The position numbers and the translations under genes were made by a program. The notes beneath the pieces were generated by a model, which was given only the letters and a program-made list of their open reading frames with translations, ran no database searches and was not told the origin of the DNA. Positions 1 to 22,262 of a DNA stretch of 22,262 nt are shown here, in pieces; position 1 is the stretch's first letter; the number at the start of each line of letters is the position of its first letter. Source of the DNA: a virus (taxonomy: Duplodnaviria; Heunggongvirae; Uroviricota; Caudoviricetes); IMG/VR virus record IMGVR_UViG_2563366960_000006; one strand, written 5' to 3'.

Positions 1-1143
1 CTATGCTGTTTTGATATCTACGATAATCCAGTCTTTACCACGATCATCATTGTATCGGTCGGTCATTTTTCTGGATTTATGGCCTAACAACTTTTGCGTA
101 TCCAGACCCTGTTCCCGATATAACCGTTCTGACAGAGATCGCTGCTCATGAAATGTGGGCGCAGTTCCTTGCTCCCATTTTATGCCACATTTTTCCCGGG
201 CCTTTTTAAAAGCCGTTGTCAGAGTATTCGCAGAAACCTGGTCTCCTCTGTTTGCTTGAGAGGTAGTGTGACGGTAATGGACCAGATATTTACTAACAAC
301 AGCATCCCTGCACTGAGATATAACTTCACGAAGGGTAATATTCAGAGCATCGCATTTCAGGTTAAGCGGAATAGCAAGTTTTGAACCGGTTTTTTCCTGA
401 GTAATGTGCAACATGTCGTCCCATATATCAGAGAATTTCAAATTGCAGATATCGCCTAAACGTTGTCCAGTAACAAGAGCAAGTAGCATGCCGCATTTTA
501 AATAGGGCTGCCGTCTGCTTACGCTGTCAAATATTGCCTGCCATTCGGGCAGTGACAATCTTTGGCGGTTTACTCGATTTCGCGGTTGTTTTGTTGCCTG
601 CGCTGGGTTAAATCCTGGCGGAACATGTCCTGCGTGTTGTGCTTCTTTGAAGACGTCGATCAACACCATTCTCACGACTTGCGCCATCCTGTTATGACCT
701 TCAGCCTTTACAGCATCAATTATTTCGGCAATATCAAGTGCGGTAATATCCTTGAGGTGTTGCATTCCACAATGCTCACGGAAAAGACGAATGGGTTTGC
801 CTTTTTGCCGATAGGAGTTGGGTCTTAGTTCATTATGTTGCAGCCTGTCCTCTTGGATAGAAATATATTTATCAAGCCATTCTGTCACCGTAATGTCTGA
901 GCGCCTGCCTTTCATTCTTTCCAGACGCTCATTGACGCTTAATATTTGTCTGGTACGTTGTTCAGCAATAATGGTATTTGCTTCAGTAGCAACTTGTTTT
1001 GCTTCATTCTCATCAGTTCCTAAGCTATGAAAACGACCGGATAGTGGATGTTTGTATTGCCAATATACCTTTCCGGTTCGCTTATCTAATTTGCAATATA
1101 AATTGGGTATAGAGATTTTGTGAGATCGGGGTCTAGCAGCCAT
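1..1143 (-). CDS. int: Lambda-family tyrosine integrase (380 aa)
   Basis: Full ORF in track; ATG at 1143, stop at 1-3. C-terminal region (HEQRSLSERLYREQG...LLGHKSRKMTDRYNDDRG) resembles the lambda Int catalytic region; overlaps the upstream xis-like gene by 11 nt as in int-xis modules. Sequence differs from lambda Int, so att specificity is probably different. Confidence 0.9.
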   Translation of the reverse strand: MAARPRSHKISIPNLYCKLDKRTGKVYWQYKHPLSGRFHSLGTDENEAKQVATEANTIIAEQRTRQILSVNERLERMKGRRSDITVTEWLDKYISIQEDRLQHNELRPNSYRQKGKPIRLFREHCGMQHLKDITALDIAEIIDAVKAEGHNRMAQVVRMVLIDVFKEAQHAGHVPPGFNPAQATKQPRNRVNRQRLSLPEWQAIFDSVSRRQPYLKCGMLLALVTGQRLGDICNLKFSDIWDDMLHITQEKTGSKLAIPLNLKCDALNITLREVISQCRDAVVSKYLVHYRHTTSQANRGDQVSANTLTTAFKKAREKCGIKWEQGTAPTFHEQRSLSERLYREQGLDTQKLLGHKSRKMTDRYNDDRGKDWIIVDIKTA

Positions 1144-14824: not shown

Positions 14825-15011
14825 CCCATCTCAATCCCTTCAATACCTGAAAGAAAGCATAGAGCGGGCTTCAATGTGCACAGAGTGGATTCTATCTAGG
14901 TTTAGCGCATACAGAAGATTGCCGGTAAAGGGCATGCCAAGCAAGTCGATGCTGCATATGCAAAAGAATGCGCGCTGGAAGGTATGGCGAGAACACAGGT
15001 TATGTGGCTGA
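14817..15011 (+). CDS. Hypothetical nin-region protein (64 aa; N-terminus reminiscent of NinF)
   Basis: ATG at 14817; begins [10 protein letters not shown]..., which I recall as the start of lambda NinF, but the remainder does not look like a zinc-finger NinF. Confidence 0.35.
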
Positions 15012-15030
15012 AAGAGGGGGTTATTAAGGC

Positions 15031-15393
15031 GTGAATACCTACAGCATCACATTACCCTGGCCTCCGAGCAATAATCGCTATTACCGCCATAATCGCGGGC
15101 GCACGCACGTCAGCGCAGAGGGGCAGGCATACCGCGATAACGTCGCCCGAATCATTAAAAACGCAATGCTGGATATCGGCCTGGCTATGCCTGTGAAAAT
15201 CCGCATTGAGTGCCACATGCCGGATCGCCGTCGCCGTGACCTGGATAATCTGCAAAAAGCCGCTTTTGACGCACTCACTAAAGCAGGTTTCTGGCTGGAT
15301 GATGCTCAGGTCGTTGATTACCGCGTTGTGAAGATGCCTGTTACCAAAGGTGGGAGGCTGGAACTGACCATCACCGAAATGGGGAATGAATGA
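15031..15393 (+). CDS. rusA: RusA Holliday-junction resolvase (120 aa)
   Basis: [103 protein letters not shown]... matches E. coli DLP12 RusA (recall); GTG start at 15031. Confidence 0.92.
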
Positions 15394-15530
15394 TGTTTGA
15401 GTTTAATATGGCAGAACTTCTTCGCCACCGCTGGGGGCGTCTGCGCTTATATCGTTTCCTCGGTTCTGTTTTGACCGATTACCGAATACTGAAGAATTAC
15501 GCCAAAACCCTGACAGGAACAGGAGTATGA
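15390..15530 (+). CDS. ylcG: YlcG-like small protein (46 aa)
   Basis: Not in track (under 60 aa). Hand translation from ATG at 15390 (overlapping the rusA stop) gives [46 protein letters not shown], stop at 15528-15530; same position as ylcG in DLP12. Confidence 0.6.
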
Positions 15531-15615
15531 AGTCAGAGATAACAATCAACTAATACTGTTTTGTTGATTTTTGCTTGTAATTGGCGTTCTGGTCTGATTT
15601 TTGTGGAGTAAGTTG

Positions 15616-15999
15616 ATGCGTGATATTCAGATGGTTCTTGAGCGTTGGGGTGCGTGGGCGGCTAATAATCATGAAGATGTGACCTGGTCGTCCATTGCCG
15701 CCGGTTTTAAGGGATTAATTCCTTCAAAAGTAAAATCTCGCCCGCAATGTTGTGACGATGACGCGATGATCATTTGCGGGTGCATGGCCCGTCTGAAAAA
15801 GAACAACAGCGATTTACACGATTTATTAGTAGATTATTATGTATGTGGTATGACATTCATGTCACTGGCAAGTAAGCATTGCTGCTCGGATGGTTATATC
15901 GGGAAAAGGTTACAGAAGGCTGAGGGCATAATTGAAGGGATGTTAATGGCATTAGATATCCGGTTAGATATGGATATCGTTGCTAATAATTCTAATTGA
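15616..15999 (+). CDS. Q: Q late-gene antiterminator, phage 82/DLP12 QuuD-type (127 aa)
   Basis: [75 protein letters not shown]... from ATG at 15616 with GGAG SD (track ORF starts at a TTG 15 nt upstream); Cys-rich zinc-binding region typical of Q82-family proteins. Confidence 0.8.
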
Positions 16000-16136
16000 T
16001 ATGCAATTGTTTACTAAAAGTTATTAAAAATGGGGCGTGGAAACGCCCCCAAAATAAAGGGTAATATATAACAGAAGGTTTATATAGTAAGAAGCAAGGT
16101 AGTGCTTCTAAAGGAAGTGGCTTGAGGGCTCCACTT

Positions 16137-16178
16137 ATATGTTGCGGAGGCAAAGCCTCCCGCAACATATCTTTTTCG
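16137..16178 (+). terminator. Strong intrinsic terminator on the plus strand downstream of Q (candidate tR')
   Basis: About 14-bp stem ATATGTTGCGGAGG-CAAA-GCCTCCCGCAACATAT (one bulged C) followed by CTTTTTCG; 140-180 nt downstream of the Q stop, the usual pR'/tR' geometry. Confidence 0.5.
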
Positions 16179-16187
16179 TAAGTCAGA

Positions 16188-17270
16188 TTAGAACTGATAA
16201 ACCAGACCTACAGCGACGATGTCGTCGGTATCAATACCAGCTGTTTTGGTAAACTTACTATCGTCAATTAAGTTGATTTTGTAATCAACAAAAGTGGACA
16301 TGTTTTTATTAAAGTAGTAAGTAGCACCGACATCGACATACTTGACTAAGTCTCGGTCACCATGAACACCAAGGTCTTTACCTTTTGACTGAAGGTAAGC
16401 AACAGATGGACGCAGACCGAAGTCAAACTGATATTGTGCTACTGCTTCAAAGTTTTGTGCTTTGTTTGCAATATGGTTATTACCAAAAACGGTCATATTC
16501 TGAGTTTCAGAATATGTGGTAGCCAGATAGATATTGTTCGCATCATATTTCAGGCCTGCAGCCCATACTTCCGCATTTTTGCCGGAGGCATTGAATTTGC
16601 TCTTACCATAGGCGACCTGACCGTCAGTGCGATCTGATTTAGCATAGGTTGCACCCACGCCGAATCCTTCATACTCATAAGTAGTGGAGAAACCGAAACC
16701 ATCACCATTGGCTTCAGTTACGTCAGTGCGGTCATTTTTACCCTGATACTGAGCAGCAAAGTTCAGGCCATCGACCAGACCAAAGAAGTCGTTGTTACGA
16801 TAAGTTGCAACACCAGTAGTGCGACCAGTCATGAACACATCTGTTTGGGTCCAGGTATCACCACCGAATTCTGGCAGAACGTCAGTCCACGCACCGATGT
16901 CGTATGCTACACCGTAGTTACGGCCGTAATCGATTGAGCCGTAATCACCAAATTTCAGGCCTGCAAATGCAAGACGGGTTTTGTCTTTGGAAGAACCTTG
17001 AGATTCAGCACGGTTGCCTTTGAATTCATATTCCCACTGACCGAAACCAGTCAGTTGATCGTTGATTTGGGTTTCACCTTTGAAGCCAAGACGGGCATAA
17101 GTAGTATCACCATCATCTGCATCATTAGAGGAGAAGTAGTGCTTGGCATTAACTTTCCCGTATAGATCCAGCTTGTTACTGTCTTTATTATAAATTTCAG
17201 CTGCCTGAGCAGACATCGCCATCAGTACTGATGCAGCTACAGCAGAAATTGCCACTGTTAATTTTTTCAT
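16188..17270 (-). CDS. nmpC: Phage-borne outer-membrane general porin (OmpC/OmpF/PhoE family; NmpC/Lc-type), 360 aa
   Basis: Signal peptide [23 protein letters not shown] then [17 protein letters not shown]..., porin PEFGGD motif, C-terminal ...VGLVYQF. ATG at 17270 (track ORF extends 60 nt upstream). Located between Q and the lysis cassette, as nmpC is in DLP12. Confidence 0.9.
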
Positions 17271-17696
17271 TGTACGCCCTTTTTTTGAACTATTATTAAA
17301 AAATGATGTCACTGCGCGATAAATATTCATCTAATCAATGTGATTATTTCAAGATGTAAGTTTTAGTTTCTCATTTAATTTGTGAAGTAGATCTCTATTT
17401 TTATCTGAACCTTTTCTATCTAATCCTATTCATGGCTCTTGTCTGAACAAAAATAAATCTATTAGCTAATTTATATTAATGGCACTTATTTATAAGTGCT
17501 CTATAATTCTTTAGCTTAATTTAAACAAACTAAAAATAACATCGGAAATTATTAACTGGTTATTTGTTGAAGTTTTCTTATGCATTTGTGGTGGTGTTTT
17601 GAACACTCGGTGGCATTCTCACAAATATCATTTAGTAGTTTACGTACGTAAAAAATTGGTTATGCTGTTAAGAGTGGTTACTTCGTCACACAGCTT

Positions 17697-17729
17697 AAAC
17701 CCGCCGTCGAGCGGGTTTTTCCATTTTTT
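17697..17729 (+). terminator. Intrinsic terminator on the plus strand upstream of the holin gene
   Basis: AAACCCGC-CGTCGA-GCGGGTTT (17697-17718) followed by TTCCATTTTTT. Confidence 0.4.
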
Positions 17730-17858
17730 GAGTCTCGATATTAGCTGATAACCCAATACCTGAGTTATTCACTGACTCCGAATCTGTTACGTTTCTGCCT
17801 TTATTGCGATACGTAGTATCCCCTTAATTTACACCCGCTTTGTCTGCGAGGTGGGGTT

Positions 17859-18074
17859 ATGAAATCCATGGATAAGTTAACAACGGGTGTCGCCTATGGT
17901 ACCTCAGCAGGTAGTGCCGGGTACTGGTTTTTACAGTTGCTCGATAAAGTCACGCCCTCACAGTGGGCGGCAATAGGTGTGCTGGGTAGCCTGGTATTTG
18001 GCCTGCTGACGTACCTGACAAACCTTTATTTCAAGATTAAAGAAGATAAGCGCAAGGCTGCGAGAGGTGAATAA
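17859..18074 (+). CDS. S: Class II holin / pinholin (S21-like), 71 aa
   Basis: [71 protein letters not shown]; two TM segments; dual-start motif M1/M4 as in S21; TAATG overlap with the endolysin gene. Confidence 0.9.
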
Positions 18075-18571
18075 TGCCTCCATCATTACGAAAAGCCGTT
18101 GCTGCTGCTATTGGTGGCGGAGCAATTGCTATAGCATCAGTGTTAATCACTGGCCCAAGTGGTAACGATGGTCTGGAAGGTGTCAGCTACATACCATACA
18201 AAGATATTGTTGGTGTATGGACTGTATGTCACGGGCATACAGGAAAAGACATCATGCTCGGTAAAACGTATACCAAAGCAGAATGCAAAGCCCTCCTGAA
18301 TAAAGACCTTGCCACGGTCGCCAGACAAATTAACCCGTACATCAAAGTCGATATACCGGAAACAATGCGCGGCGCTCTTTACTCATTCGTTTACAACGTG
18401 GGTGCTGGCAATTTCAGAACATCGACGCTTCTTCGCAAAATAAACCAGGGCGATATCAAAGGCGCATGTGATCAGCTACGTCGCTGGACATATGCTGGCG
18501 GTAAGCAATGGAAAGGTCTCATGACTCGTCGTGAGATTGAGCGTGAAATCTGTTTGTGGGGTCAGCAATGA
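18074..18571 (+). CDS. R: SAR endolysin (T4-lysozyme-like muramidase with N-terminal signal-anchor-release domain), 165 aa
   Basis: Gly/Ala-rich weakly hydrophobic N-terminus ([20 protein letters not shown]) followed by a lysozyme domain; paired with a pinholin as in phage 21/DLP12. Confidence 0.9.
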
Positions 18572-19029
18572 ACAGAGTAACCGCGATTATCTCCGCTCTG
18601 GTTATCTGCATCATCGTCTGCCTGTCATGGGCTGTTAATCATTACCGTGATAACGCCATTACCTACAAAGCCCAGCGCGACAAAAATGCCAGAGAACTGA
18701 CGCTGGCGAACGCGGTAATTACTGACATACAGATGCGTCAGCGTGATGTTGCTGCGCTCGATGCAAAATACACGAAGGAGTTAGCTGATGCGAAAGCTGA
18801 AAATGATGCTCTGCGTGATGATGTTGCCGCTGGTCGTCGTCGGTTGCACATCAAAGCAGTCTGTCAGTCAGTGCGTGAAGCCACCACCGCCTCCGGCGTG
18901 GATAATGCAGCCTCCCCCCGACTGGCAGACACCGCTGAACGGGATTATTTCACCCTCAGAGAGAGGCTGATCACTATGCAAAAACAACTGGAAGGAACCC
19001 AGAAGTATATTAATGAGCAGTGCAGATAG
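18568..19029 (+). CDS. Rz: Rz i-spanin (153 aa from ATG at 18568)
   Basis: N-terminal TM helix, coiled-coil periplasmic domain; starts with an ATGA overlap on the endolysin stop; contains the embedded Rz1 frame. Confidence 0.85.
18788..18970 (+). CDS. Rz1: Rz1 o-spanin lipoprotein (60 aa), embedded in Rz in the +1 frame
   Basis: Lipobox LVVVGC; proline-rich mature region ([16 protein letters not shown]); entirely inside Rz. Confidence 0.8.
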
Positions 19030-19060
19030 AGCTGCCCATATCGATGGGCAACTCATGCAA

Positions 19061-19354
19061 TTATTGTGAGCAATACACACGCGCTTCCAGCGGAGTATAA
19101 ATGCCTAAAGTAATAAAACCGAGCAATCCATTTACGAATGTTTGCTGGGTTTCTGTTTTAACAACATTTTCTGCACCACCACAAATTTTTGCTGCATCGA
19201 CAGTTTTCTTCTGCCCAATTCCCGAAACGAAGAAATGATGGGTGATGGTTTCCTTTGGTGTTACTGCTGTAGGTTTGTTTCCAACAGTAAACGTCTGTTG
19301 AGCACATCCTGTAATAAGCATTGCCAGAGCGGCAGAAAACAACATTTTTTTCAT
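19061..19354 (-). CDS. bor: Bor outer-membrane lipoprotein (serum resistance), 97 aa
   Basis: From ATG at 19354: MKKMLFSAALAMLITGCAQQTFTVGNKPTAVTPKETITHHFFVSGIGQKKTVDAAKICGGAENVVKTETQQTFVNGLLGFITLGIYTPLEARVYCSQ, near identical to lambda Bor (recall); lipobox LITGC. Confidence 0.9.
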   Translation of the reverse strand: MKKMLFSAALAMLITGCAQQTFTVGNKPTAVTPKETITHHFFVSGIGQKKTVDAAKICGGAENVVKTETQQTFVNGLLGFITLGIYTPLEARVYCSQ

Positions 19355-19834
19355 CTTATTATCCTGCATTGTTAAAAACGGCAGAATCCTATGTGACAAC
19401 AATTAAACGATAGTTAAATGGATTGATGAAAATTAAAACTACACAGGTGGGCTCAGACTATTGGAGGAAGTTGGGGACACTCAGAATCCTGTGGAATGAA
19501 ATAAACCGGTCTATCCGTCCATTACCCTTTTAGCTGCGCTGTATCGTCGCCGTATTCCCGCATTAACCATGACCGTAGCCCGACGGGGAATTCCTTCTGC
19601 GTGAGTGTGCGGGAATAATTAAAAACGATGCACACCGGGTTTTTACCGCGTTAATGATTCGCGGGTTTATCCCGGTGCGATGGTGGAAGAAACAGGAAGC
19701 TGTATTACAGAAAGTGCTACTACTGTATCCCGATGCGATGTATGTAATGTGAGTCAGATAATGGCACAGGATGTGGTGATGTGGCAGTCTGGAACACAGG
19801 ATATATTGTCAGAATAAGACCCGTAGGAATAAAA

Positions 19835-20161
19835 ATGAAAAGACGCCTTTTACTACTTTTTCTGTTATCTGTCCTGGCAGTGGGATGCTCGCAGCAAAAA
19901 GCTGATGAGCCCCGGCAATTAGTGACGGTGTATCCACGATATCCGGAATATGCTGCAGCAAATTATATCAAGGGGCTGGTTGAGGTTAAGTTCGATATTG
20001 GTGCTGATGGGACTGTGACACGGATCGTTTTTCTCCGCTCAGAGCCTCATAATTTGTTTCGTGATGAAGTGGTGAAGGCCATGGCGAAATGGCGATTTGA
20101 AAAGAATCGCCCCTGTCAGGGAGTGAAGAGACAATTTATCTTTACGCCGTCACGTCCTTGA
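19835..20161 (+). CDS. Putative lipoprotein with TonB C-terminal-domain-like region (109 aa)
   Basis: ATG at 19835 with AGGA SD; signal peptide plus lipobox (MKRRLLLLFLLSVLAVGC); mature part YPRYPEYAAANYIKGLVEVKFDIGADGTVTRIVFLRSEPHNLFRDEVVKAMAKWRF fits the TonB C-terminal domain pattern (recall). Confidence 0.55.
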   Translation: MKRRLLLLFLLSVLAVGCSQQKADEPRQLVTVYPRYPEYAAANYIKGLVEVKFDIGADGTVTRIVFLRSEPHNLFRDEVVKAMAKWRFEKNRPCQGVKRQFIFTPSRP

Positions 20162-20283
20162 TGCTTCCAGGTAGAGAGGGGCTGGAAGCAGGAGAAAAAT
20201 GAAAGAGCCAGCGGTTATATTTTTGTCATGGCTGACGAGGAATGATGGAAGAAGGCGTTGTATGCCACACAACGCCTCACTGT

Positions 20284-20463
20284 TCATTTCTTCTTTTTCT
20301 CTGGTGGAACCCGATGAATAAGAGTTGCACTGGTTTCCGATGAGATGGCGATATACTCGGGCAAAGTATGCTGGCAGTTTTCCAACTGGTCAAAAATACC
20401 TGCTCTCGTCTGTTGCAATGCCTGCAGCATGCGGCGGCAATGCGCCTTGCTTTTACTAACCAT
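20284..20463 (-). CDS. Hypothetical small protein (59 aa from ATG at 20463; alternative 117-aa form from 20637)
   Basis: Strong SD GAGGAAGGA before ATG at 20463; the longer track ORF (start 20637) has no SD and overlaps the neighbouring gene in another frame. Confidence 0.3.
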   Translation of the reverse strand: MVSKSKAHCRRMLQALQQTRAGIFDQLENCQHTLPEYIAISSETSATLIHRVPPEKKKK

Positions 20464-20524
20464 CTTTCCTTCCTCTATCAGTCGCTGCGTGAACTCATCA
20501 TGGAATACCAGGTAAATGCGGATG

Positions 20525-20776
20525 TTATCGGTTTTGGCTACGCAGCATAGTACAAAACGGACAGGTGCATCCCGGGACGGGGGAGGCGTCACATGTCCCT
20601 GTGATGGTTGTTCCGGGTAATGTACTGTGTGGGGCATAAAAATGTCCGATAATTTTACTTTCTACCGCAGTTAGTTGATTCGTTGGTCCTGGTAGCACAT
20701 TGGGCGAGGATTTAAATGCCAGGCAACTGAAGGATGATGTCGCAAGGGAGATAGCGAGAATATTTCTGATTTTCAT
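20525..20776 (-). CDS. Hypothetical secreted Cys-rich small protein (83 aa)
   Basis: ATG at 20776 with AGAGG SD; N-terminal signal peptide (MKIRNILAISLATSSFSCLA); C-terminal Cys cluster (TGTCDASPVPGCTCPFC). Confidence 0.35.
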   Translation of the reverse strand: MKIRNILAISLATSSFSCLAFKSSPNVLPGPTNQLTAVESKIIGHFYAPHSTLPGTTITGTCDASPVPGCTCPFCTMLRSQNR

Positions 20777-20924
20777 TTGATGATGCCTCTGTGTGAAATG
20801 ACGGTAAACGACGCACTTGTGCCGGCACATAATAGCAAGCACCATAATAGATCAGATTCGATTCTTGCTGTAAGTGATAATTATTCTCGTTTTCGGGTCC
20901 TTTCCGTCGATCCAACAGGTTACG

Positions 20925-20936
20925 GGGCGGCGACCT
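20925..20936. other. cos site: lambda-type 12-nt cohesive end (cosN) with flanking cosQ/cosB region about 20850-21110
   Basis: GGGCGGCGACCT preceded by TTACG and followed by CGCGGTTTTTCACTATTTATGAAAATTTTT, closely matching the lambda genome ends (recall); lies directly upstream of Nu1. Confidence 0.8.
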
Positions 20937-21112
20937 CGCGGTTTTTCACTATTTATGAAAATTTTTCAGGGAAAATCGTGTCGGTACTTCTCGAATATAA
21001 CTTTTTGTTTTTTTTAATATTGCATCCGTAAAGGTCCGACATGAAAGTGTCCGAAAATGCCTTTTTCTGGCGTTTTCATGTCGGGCCTTGTATTTGATAA
21101 TGGGTTGTTTTC

Positions 21113-21661
21113 ATGAAGGTTAATAAAAAGAGGCTTGCCGAAATTTTCAACGTGGACCCGCGGACGATTGAACGCTGGCAGTCTCAGGGACTCCCTTGCG
21201 CCTCCAAAGGTAGTAAGGGCATTGAATCTGTATTTGATACTGCCATGGCAATTCAGTGGTATGCGCAGAGGGAAACTGATATCGAAAACGAAAAGCTCCG
21301 CAAAGAACTGGACGATTTGCGTGCGGCAGCGGAGTCAGATTTACAACCCGGCACCATTGACTATGAACGCTACCGGCTCACAAAAGCGCAGGCAGATGCG
21401 CAGGAACTGAAAAATGCCCGTGAAGACGGAGTAGTGCTGGAAACTGAACTGTTTACCTTCATTCTGCAACGTGTGGCACAGGAGATTTCGGGGATACTTG
21501 TGCGTGTGCCGTTGACATTACAGCGTAAATATCCGGACATTTCACCATCACACCTTGATGTGGTGAAAACTGAAATCGCGAAAGCCTCCAATGTTGCAGC
21601 TAAGGCCGGTGAAAACGTGGGCGGGTGGATCGATGATTTCAGACGCGCAGAAGGCAGCTAA
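21113..21661 (+). CDS. nu1: Terminase small subunit Nu1 (182 aa)
   Basis: [103 protein letters not shown]... is homologous to lambda Nu1 (recall). Confidence 0.9.
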
Positions 21662-22262
21662 TGCAGCCGGTGCGATAGCTACAGGGCTTTTATCTCTCAT
21701 TATTCCTGTTCCACTGACGACAGTTCAGTGGGCCAATAAACATTATTACCTTCCTAAAGAGTCGTCTTATACCCCGGGGCGATGGGAAACACTGCCGTTT
21801 CAGGTTGGCATCATGAACTGTATGGGCAACGATCTGATTCGCACGGTTAACCTGATTAAATCTGCCCGTGTTGGTTATACAAAGATGTTGCTGGGAGTGG
21901 AGGCTTATTTTATTGAGCATAAATCACGCAACAGCCTTCTTTTTCAGCCCACGGACTCAGCTGCTGAAGATTTTATGAAATCTCATGTTGAGCCAACGAT
22001 AAGGGATGTTCCTGCATTGCTGGAGCTGGCTCCATGGTTCGGAAGAAAACACCGCGATAATACGCTCACCCTGAAGCGTTTTTCCTCCGGTGTGGGGTTC
22101 TGGTGTCTGGGTGGTGCGGCAGCAAAAAACTACCGTGAAAAATCCGTGGATGTGGTCTGTTATGACGAGCTTTCCTCGTTCGAACCGGATGTTGAAAAAG
22201 AGGGTTCGCCAACCCTGCTGGGGGATAAACGTATTGAGGGCTCTGTATGGCCAAAATCCATT
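21633..22262 (+). CDS. A: Terminase large subunit A, N-terminal 210 codons (runs off the window end)
   Basis: Hand translation from ATG at 21633 (overlapping the Nu1 end by 29 nt): [14 protein letters not shown]...[21 protein letters not shown]...[13 protein letters not shown]...[33 protein letters not shown]...[14 protein letters not shown], collinear with the lambda gpA N-terminus. Not in the track because there is no stop before the window end. Confidence 0.85.

Follow-up and report, generated by a model that had tools for sequence, protein, structure and literature searches.

The stretch of DNA analysed here, referred to throughout as the window, comprises 22,262 nucleotides of the IMG/VR virus record IMGVR_UViG_2563366960_000006 (Caudoviricetes) and represents the arm of a phage 21-type lambdoid prophage. 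The gene under study lies in its late region, between the lysis cassette and the terminase, and encodes a small lipoprotein built around a TonB C-terminal domain, which we call the TonB_C lipoprotein. A preliminary description of the window, made from the sequence alone, had placed this gene at 19835-20161; the open reading frame was confirmed on the plus strand with the same boundaries, and its product is 108 residues long, one fewer than the 109 given there. The gene was 100% identical to gene CPT_21_73 of phage 21, annotated as "TonB C-terminal domain protein", and is represented in RefSeq by WP_000830178.1 ("TonB family protein"), for example in Nissle 1917. It is known already as an annotation and is functionally uncharacterised: our full-text literature searches found no functional study of the TonB_C lipoprotein, and its sole direct mention was in a table of the transcriptome of Escherichia coli LF82, discussed below.

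The lipoprotein holds a genuine, complete TonB C-terminal domain, as the preliminary description had proposed for its mature part from a pattern of residues. In profile searches, both Pfam TonB_C (PF03544; E = 7.3e-13, 49.2 bits against a cutoff of 24.6) and TIGR01352 (47.4 bits against a cutoff of 27.1) matched above their thresholds, and a phmmer search of PDB sequences returned structures of the E. coli TonB C-terminal domain at the top (E ~ 1e-14). The alignment to TonB was ungapped, with query residues 24-103 corresponding to TonB 151-230 (query n = TonB n + 127), and the identity to the E. coli domain was 38-40% over about 80 residues. The YP motif (Y36-P37) fell on TonB Y163-P164 and the aromatic core (F53, F75, W86, F88 and F103) on TonB F180, F202, W213, Y215 and F230, respectively, with P34, Y36, F75 and W86 invariant across 26 relatives. 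The strand formed by residues 94-103 is the equivalent of TonB beta3, the pairing partner of the transporters' TonB box (PMC11658791), and the two TonB-box-binding elements, the YP motif and beta3, were the best conserved parts of the protein. Single-sequence structure prediction was weak (predicted local distance difference test score, pLDDT, of 51), and an AlphaFold model built from a 26-sequence alignment was used instead, with a pLDDT of 88 overall and about 97 in the domain. Foldseek superposed this model on TonB in its complexes with BtuB (2gsk_B, root-mean-square deviation 1.0 Å) and FhuA (2grx_C, 0.9 Å), at 39-40% identity, and on 1u07_A with a TM-score of 0.91.

The N-terminus (MKRRLLLLFLLSVLAVGC followed by SQQK) displays the sequence features of a bacterial lipoprotein, namely a basic n-region (MKRR), a hydrophobic core (LLLLFLLSV) and a lipobox, LAVGC, whose cysteine at position 18 falls within the expected range of about 15 to 35. 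This bore out the earlier reading of the product as a lipoprotein, and the lipobox cysteine was invariant in 12 aligned relatives, with lipoboxes of the form LxGC or LSAC. Under the +2 rule of Lol sorting, an Asp at position +2 is the signal for retention in the inner membrane. The residue at this position is Ser here and Ser, Thr or Ala, never Asp, in 16 relatives; since the retention signal is absent, the TonB_C lipoprotein is predicted to be sorted, probably, to the outer membrane.

The domain is shared with E. coli TonB (PDB 1U07, 2GSK, 2GRX) in its fold, YP motif, aromatic core and beta3, whereas the rest of the protein differs. The lipoprotein has 108 residues against 239 in TonB, lacks the N-terminal transmembrane anchor and the proline-rich spacer, is predicted to be anchored by lipid at the opposite membrane, and ends five residues after beta3, without the last TonB strand. 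An 18-residue signal peptide, which would be cleaved off at Cys18, takes the place of the anchor, and about eight residues separate Cys18 from the domain. Among the TonB equivalogs NF008080-84, the best score was 69 bits against a cutoff of 315, and an assignment to TonB proper was rejected on this score and on the missing anchor and spacer. Because it lacks that anchor and spacer, the protein cannot transduce energy from ExbB/ExbD.

Selection and expression data indicate that the gene is functional. At 95% identity or more, the window allele (allele 1) was present in 1225 of 5426 complete E. coli genomes; a second allele (allele 2; 70% identical in protein and 72% in DNA), found in Stx1a phages and JLK-2012, was present in 415 further genomes of the same set, mostly Shiga toxin-producing E. 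coli (STEC). Some quarter to a third of the complete E. coli genomes are thus carriers, with Nissle 1917, LF82, and lineages of STEC and of extraintestinal pathogenic E. coli among them. Over the 1.3 kb around the gene, the window matched phage 21, ev017 and the phages PhiR47_2/57_1/63_2 at 100% identity; for Perceval, the prophage of LF82, in which the gene is annotated as "TonB fragment", the figure was 99.9%. Between alleles 1 and 2, the ratio of nonsynonymous to synonymous substitution rates (dN/dS) was 0.12 at a dS of about 1.5, and this held in the signal peptide and in the domain alike, which indicates purifying selection and argues against a dead "TonB fragment". A backbone segment of about 300 bp upstream was conserved between the two alleles, and downstream the similarity ended at about position 20144. 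In RNA sequencing of the LF82 (Perceval) lysogen grown in LB, "LF82_160 TonB fragment" stood 8-fold above the prophage background, and the same table lists the NmpC porin at 10x and sitABCD at 4-13x (PMC9928086, Table 1). The TonB_C lipoprotein gene is an expressed moron, not a remnant. As a side observation, a 418-bp contig assigned to Modestobacter excelsi (NZ_SJEX01000172.1; L007) carries a fragment 100% identical to the E. coli prophage gene, which is almost certainly an assembly contamination.

The gene belongs to a wider family whose members extend beyond phages. An exhaustive, profile-free search returned 2795 TonB_C relatives, within which a distinct set of short proteins (107-135 residues) aligned from residue 1, most of them with lipoboxes. 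With one genome scanned for each species, chromosomal copies came to light in Klebsiella, Raoultella, Serratia grimesii and Erwinia, with the same architecture of lipobox and TonB_C domain (108-133 residues, 35-49% identity), standing alone near housekeeping genes (lacZ/lacI, dsbB/nhaB, araAB); other family members adjoin ahpCF or, on a plasmid, Qat defence genes. In a rough neighbour-joining tree computed without bootstrap, the lipoprotein forms made up one clade apart from TonB proper, in which phage and chromosomal copies were intermixed. For one member of 129 residues (P0071; L116 5001-5390), the contig is plasmid-like, with ParM/StbA partition genes on one side and a KAP NTPase/QatB defence cluster on the other, possibly a defence island.

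Upstream of the family members, we scanned for the 19-bp Fur consensus at the loci of chromosomal homologues (L008-L015, L106-L114, L120) and of a phage copy (L111/L112). Matches of 14-17/19 were found 10-60 bp 5' of the start codon in about seven lineages, several of them metagenomic and one a phage copy (Klebsiella, Raoultella, Serratia, P0040, P0041, P0050, P0117 and the phage copy P0037), and these were essentially the sole such sites within each locus of 5-12 kb; no match at the Erwinia locus reached 14/19. As a positive control, the same scan over 30 kb of phage 21 picked only the sitA promoter. Most chromosomal members thus carry a Fur box, whereas the window allele, situated in a prophage late region, has lost it: a deletion of about 13 bp takes out half of the ancestral site and leaves AGAATAAGAC, and in the upstream region 19403-19860 no Fur match reaches 12/19. 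In allele 2 the sequence runs on with TTATTCTTATC, a decayed site of 13/19. Since the chromosomal members carry strong Fur boxes, the family appears tied to iron physiology rather than being a phage invention. From these upstream motifs, it looks like part of the iron-starvation response, with the E. coli prophage copies having escaped Fur control, and the boxes would imply a member of the enterobacterial Fur regulon that has so far gone unrecognised. A further 15/19 match in the window (GATAATTATTCTCGTTTTC, 20876-20894) adjoins cosQ, some 30 bp short of the cos end and 700 bp downstream of the gene; we regard it as a probable product of chance in AT-rich cos DNA. Phage 21 and its relatives carry sitABCD, encoding an iron/manganese ATP-binding cassette transporter; in the phage 21 locus (L003) these genes occupy 21967-25416, and the sitA promoter bears a Fur box of 17/19 (25493-25511).

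The features of the gene and its surroundings are collected in Table 1.

Table 1. Features of the TonB_C lipoprotein gene and of the surrounding prophage arm (positions in the window)
Feature	Position	Strand	Basis or remark
TonB_C lipoprotein coding sequence	19835..20161	+	108 residues plus stop; ATG at 19835, TGA ending at 20161; open reading frame list and sequence
Shine-Dalgarno AGGA	19825..19828	+	6 nt 5' of the ATG; the phage 21 record annotates a ribosome binding site here
Lipoprotein signal peptide, residues 1-18	19835..19888	+	read directly from sequence
Lipobox L14-A-V-G-C18	19874-19888	+	Cys18 codon 19886-19888; predicted acylated first residue
TonB C-terminal domain, residues 26-103	19910..20143	+	equals E. 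coli TonB 153-230; Pfam, NCBIfam, PDB alignment, model
Remnant half Fur box	19811..19820	+	upstream allele alignments, Fur consensus scans
GATAAT, candidate -10 element	19757..19762	+	alignment
Conserved non-coding lambdoid backbone element, left end of cassette	19541..19697	+	domain 1 at 19541-19631; tail GGUGGAAGAAAC ends at about 19697
Integrase	1-1143	-	
Q antiterminator	15601-15999		
Prophage porin of the Porin_1 family (NmpC/OmpC-like), between Q and holin	16188-17330	-	
S21 pinholin, signal-arrest-release (SAR) endolysin, Rz/Rz1	17859-19029		
Rz	18556-19029		complete spanin pair with Rz1
Rz1, embedded in Rz	18788-18970		complete spanin pair with Rz
bor/iss, outer-membrane lipoprotein of known lysogenic conversion	19061-19354	-	Pfam Lambda_Bor, E = 1e-30
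Nu1	21113-21661		

The gene and bor are divergent neighbours 480 bp apart, so that the position "downstream of bor" given in the preliminary description holds on the map and not for transcription. Its portrayal as a moron adjoining bor was upheld, and the gene is transcribed in a lysogen (PMC9928086). Bor itself is context and lies outside the unit, since the cassette occurred without bor in 35 of 80 IMG/VR loci. The TonB_C lipoprotein and Bor/Iss are alike as prophage lipoprotein morons of the post-lysis region, placed in the outer membrane (by prediction for the former) and expressed in lysogens; they differ in that Bor/Iss belongs to the unrelated Lambda_Bor family, is encoded on the opposite strand and has been connected with serum resistance, not with the TonB system. 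With the porin, the late region of this prophage holds three known or predicted outer-membrane morons. Phage 21 has two tRNA genes in place of the porin of the window, and no tRNA genes were found in positions 15000-22262 of the window.

The slot between the lysis cassette and the terminase is a classic lambdoid moron site, and relatives down to 33-45% identity occupied it in the same orientation in at least five unrelated backbones: the phage 21 type, the Stx1a/JLK-2012 type, a Klebsiella phage, an HNH/Terminase_4 phage and a prophage with a GH19 endolysin and a GpA terminase. Because of its place after the lysis cassette, the gene is read through by late transcription, and a terminator scan predicted no plus-strand terminator from Rz to the gene. 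The hexamer GATAAT, kept in both alleles amid a poorly conserved stretch, is at most a candidate for the -10 element of a lysogen-active promoter, as judged from the alignment; a consensus promoter scan found no plus-strand site above threshold 5' of the gene, which says little on a lysogen promoter.

We tentatively read the TonB_C lipoprotein as a decoy for TonB boxes that damps TonB-dependent entry into the lysogen, a mechanism of exclusion that is plausible by analogy. To our knowledge, the sole well-established activity of the fold that TonB's C-terminal domain adopts is beta-augmentation with TonB-box peptides. The lipoprotein would be stationed where TonB-dependent transporters open to the periplasm, and its lipid anchor and linker of about eight residues would be ideal for placing the domain at the inner face of the outer membrane, where TonB boxes could be captured. 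The beta3 strand would bind the TonB boxes of transporters, of incoming group-B colicins or of both by beta-strand augmentation, and the bound lipoprotein would compete with energised TonB, such that the lysogen would experience less TonB-dependent entry of phages, colicins, microcins and sideromycins while losing some siderophore uptake. In this reading, the gene is a self-contained moron that originated in the Fur-regulated chromosomal family of Enterobacterales and was repeatedly placed between the lysis cassette and the terminase. The location in the outer membrane, the binding of TonB boxes and any exclusion phenotype are what we infer here.

Two sets of published observations are consistent with such a decoy. 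According to the account of Howard, Herrmann, Stratilo and Braun (2001) cited in PMC9841981, an overproduced periplasmic TonB domain inhibits FhuA- and FecA-dependent transport. As far as that account describes them, the engineered fragments resemble the TonB_C lipoprotein as periplasmic TonB domains delivered to the periplasm without the energy-coupling anchor, and differ from it as artificial, soluble and overproduced pieces of E. coli TonB, whereas the protein described here is natural, predicted to be lipid-anchored and about 40% identical. Similarly, Llp of T5 and Cor of phi80, N15, HK022 and mEp167 are small phage lipoproteins of the inner leaflet of the outer membrane that act from within the periplasm to block FhuA (bioRxiv 10.64898/2026.03.26.714494). 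Both are specific to FhuA and remodel its plug and loops, whereas a trap made of a TonB domain would be generic for TonB boxes. The preliminary description had drawn this analogy, which is one of function and not of sequence or fold: searches of Pfam, PHROG and the PDB detected no similarity to Cor or Llp and gave only TonB-type matches. The cor gene lies in the tail region, not after the lysis genes.

Several points weigh against the decoy. The literature searched contained no report of binding or of a phenotype, and no annotation or PADLOC model carries such a function (0 families of the PADLOC-DB defence models at E <= 0.1). R158, Q160 and R166 of TonB are implicated in contacts with the TonB box or the receptor; they are not kept in the lipoprotein, which has T31, Y33 and Y39 at these positions, so the ligand could differ. 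An uptake inhibitor induced by iron starvation would be paradoxical, and the Fur boxes of the family may speak for a positive role instead. The C-terminus of phage 21 J was 55-57% identical to those of the lambda and 434 J proteins, which bind porins, making self-exclusion through a TonB-dependent receptor unlikely. Finally, the fixed position and orientation in the late operon would also fit a role in the lytic cycle. A more general form of the decoy proposal is less likely than not: the family would comprise natural dominant-negative TonB domains, tethered to the outer membrane, that are induced through Fur in Enterobacterales when TonB-dependent receptors, by which group-B colicins, microcins and many phages enter, are derepressed, and that temperate phages have repeatedly captured into the post-lysis slot to give lysogens a broad, receptor-independent tolerance to TonB-dependent killers. 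On this view, about 30% of complete E. coli genomes would carry such an immunity.

A positive role in iron acquisition, in which an outer-membrane-tethered TonB domain would aid uptake under iron starvation as an accessory factor, is an alternative that we consider unlikely, albeit one that Fur control of the homologues would allow. The strong Fur boxes 5' of the chromosomal homologues and of one phage copy, the stand-alone chromosomal genes in housekeeping neighbourhoods, and the presence of sitABCD in all seven phage records with allele 1 are in its favour. The TonB C-terminal domain has been reported to contact the periplasmic binding proteins FhuD and BtuF, and the lipoprotein could hold such binding proteins or TonB at transporters, or stabilise extended TonB boxes, with the prophage copy serving as a fitness moron like sitABCD. 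However, the protein has nothing of what is needed for energy transmission, the one effect tested for free periplasmic TonB domains, in the account cited above, is inhibition, and the E. coli alleles have lost their Fur box. The co-carriage of sit is a lineage effect: sitA was found in 27 phage records, 7 of which also have the TonB_C gene and 20 of which lack it, and phages with allele 2 are without sit. On these two counts, a specific iron-compensation link to sitABCD was rejected.

A function in the lytic cycle, by which a product of the late transcript would act at or after lysis to alter receptors or aid the disruption of the envelope, appears improbable. Llp of T5 has been proposed to keep progeny from being lost on debris through such an alteration of the receptor, and the gene stands directly after the lysis cassette, on the late strand, in the five or more backbones listed above; in the window, no plus-strand terminator was predicted between Rz and the gene. 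It also matches PHROG 1267, labelled "Rz-like spanin", with E = 5e-43. On the other hand, a complete Rz/Rz1 pair is present already, the mature protein is modelled as a globular TonB domain and not as a short proline-rich outer spanin, the gene is transcribed in uninduced lysogens (PMC9928086), its chromosomal homologues have no phage context, and the post-lysis slot is a generic site for lambdoid morons in which bor sits too. The spanin label itself was rejected, given that the gene lies 800 bp from Rz/Rz1 and beyond bor, that the protein is globular, and that Rz with its embedded Rz1 is already in place; it appears to be an annotation mis-transferred from the neighbouring lysis genes.

We give little credence to a role in the envelope or in host interaction apart from TonB boxes, for example through peptidoglycan or a host factor, with an outcome such as a sturdier envelope or Bor/Iss-like serum resistance. 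Peptidoglycan binding has been proposed for TonB-like domains, the gene adjoins bor and shares the late region with the prophage porin, and among the Foldseek matches the C-terminal domain of FusB binds a protein substrate (PDB 9hi3). The Fur boxes of the family, though, indicate iron and not serum, the elements that bind TonB boxes are the best conserved ones, and the protein has no similarity to Bor. The wording of the Perceval and ev017 records ("TonB fragment", "partial tonB-like") and the many truncated copies in databases might suggest that the gene is the non-functional leftover of a host tonB whose 3' end was captured. This reading is very remote and effectively refuted by the data on selection and conservation, given the dN/dS, the protein's own signal peptide with an invariant lipobox cysteine, a clade distinct from TonB proper at 36-40% identity to the E. 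coli protein, and transcription in the lysogen.

Siderophores, vitamin B12, many colicins and microcins, siderophore-antibiotic conjugates of the cefiderocol type and numerous phages all enter through TonB-dependent transporters. A prophage gene that tunes this gateway could alter susceptibility to phage-therapy cocktails, competition by bacteriocins in the gut and the action of Trojan-horse antibiotics; it would be the first natural TonB mimicry to serve conversion or defence. In its Fur-regulated chromosomal relatives, the response of enterobacteria to iron starvation would gain a component not recognised before. New here are the dN/dS estimate, the Fur-linked clade consisting of lipoproteins only, the slot shared by at least five backbones and the link to published transcription in a lysogen; a Fur-linked family that phages have repeatedly captured makes a moderately interesting candidate.

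The left end of the cassette is formed by a non-coding element (Table 1) in which the two alleles resembled each other more closely than they did in the coding sequence. A total of 432 phage records contained it, lambda, 933W, Stx phages and a Salmonella phage among them, always on the late strand and just after Rz or bor; it is annotated in none of them and had no match in Rfam. Across 15 sequences, RNAalifold folded it into a closing stem around a 13-bp hairpin, with 97.6% of cells paired and 4 compensatory pairs, compared to 29-63% in controls with a slid register, and its many G·U pairs fit only the strand of the late transcript. The element is thus a candidate for a structured RNA that perhaps serves processing or stability or acts as a small RNA, and is probably not specific to the TonB_C gene.

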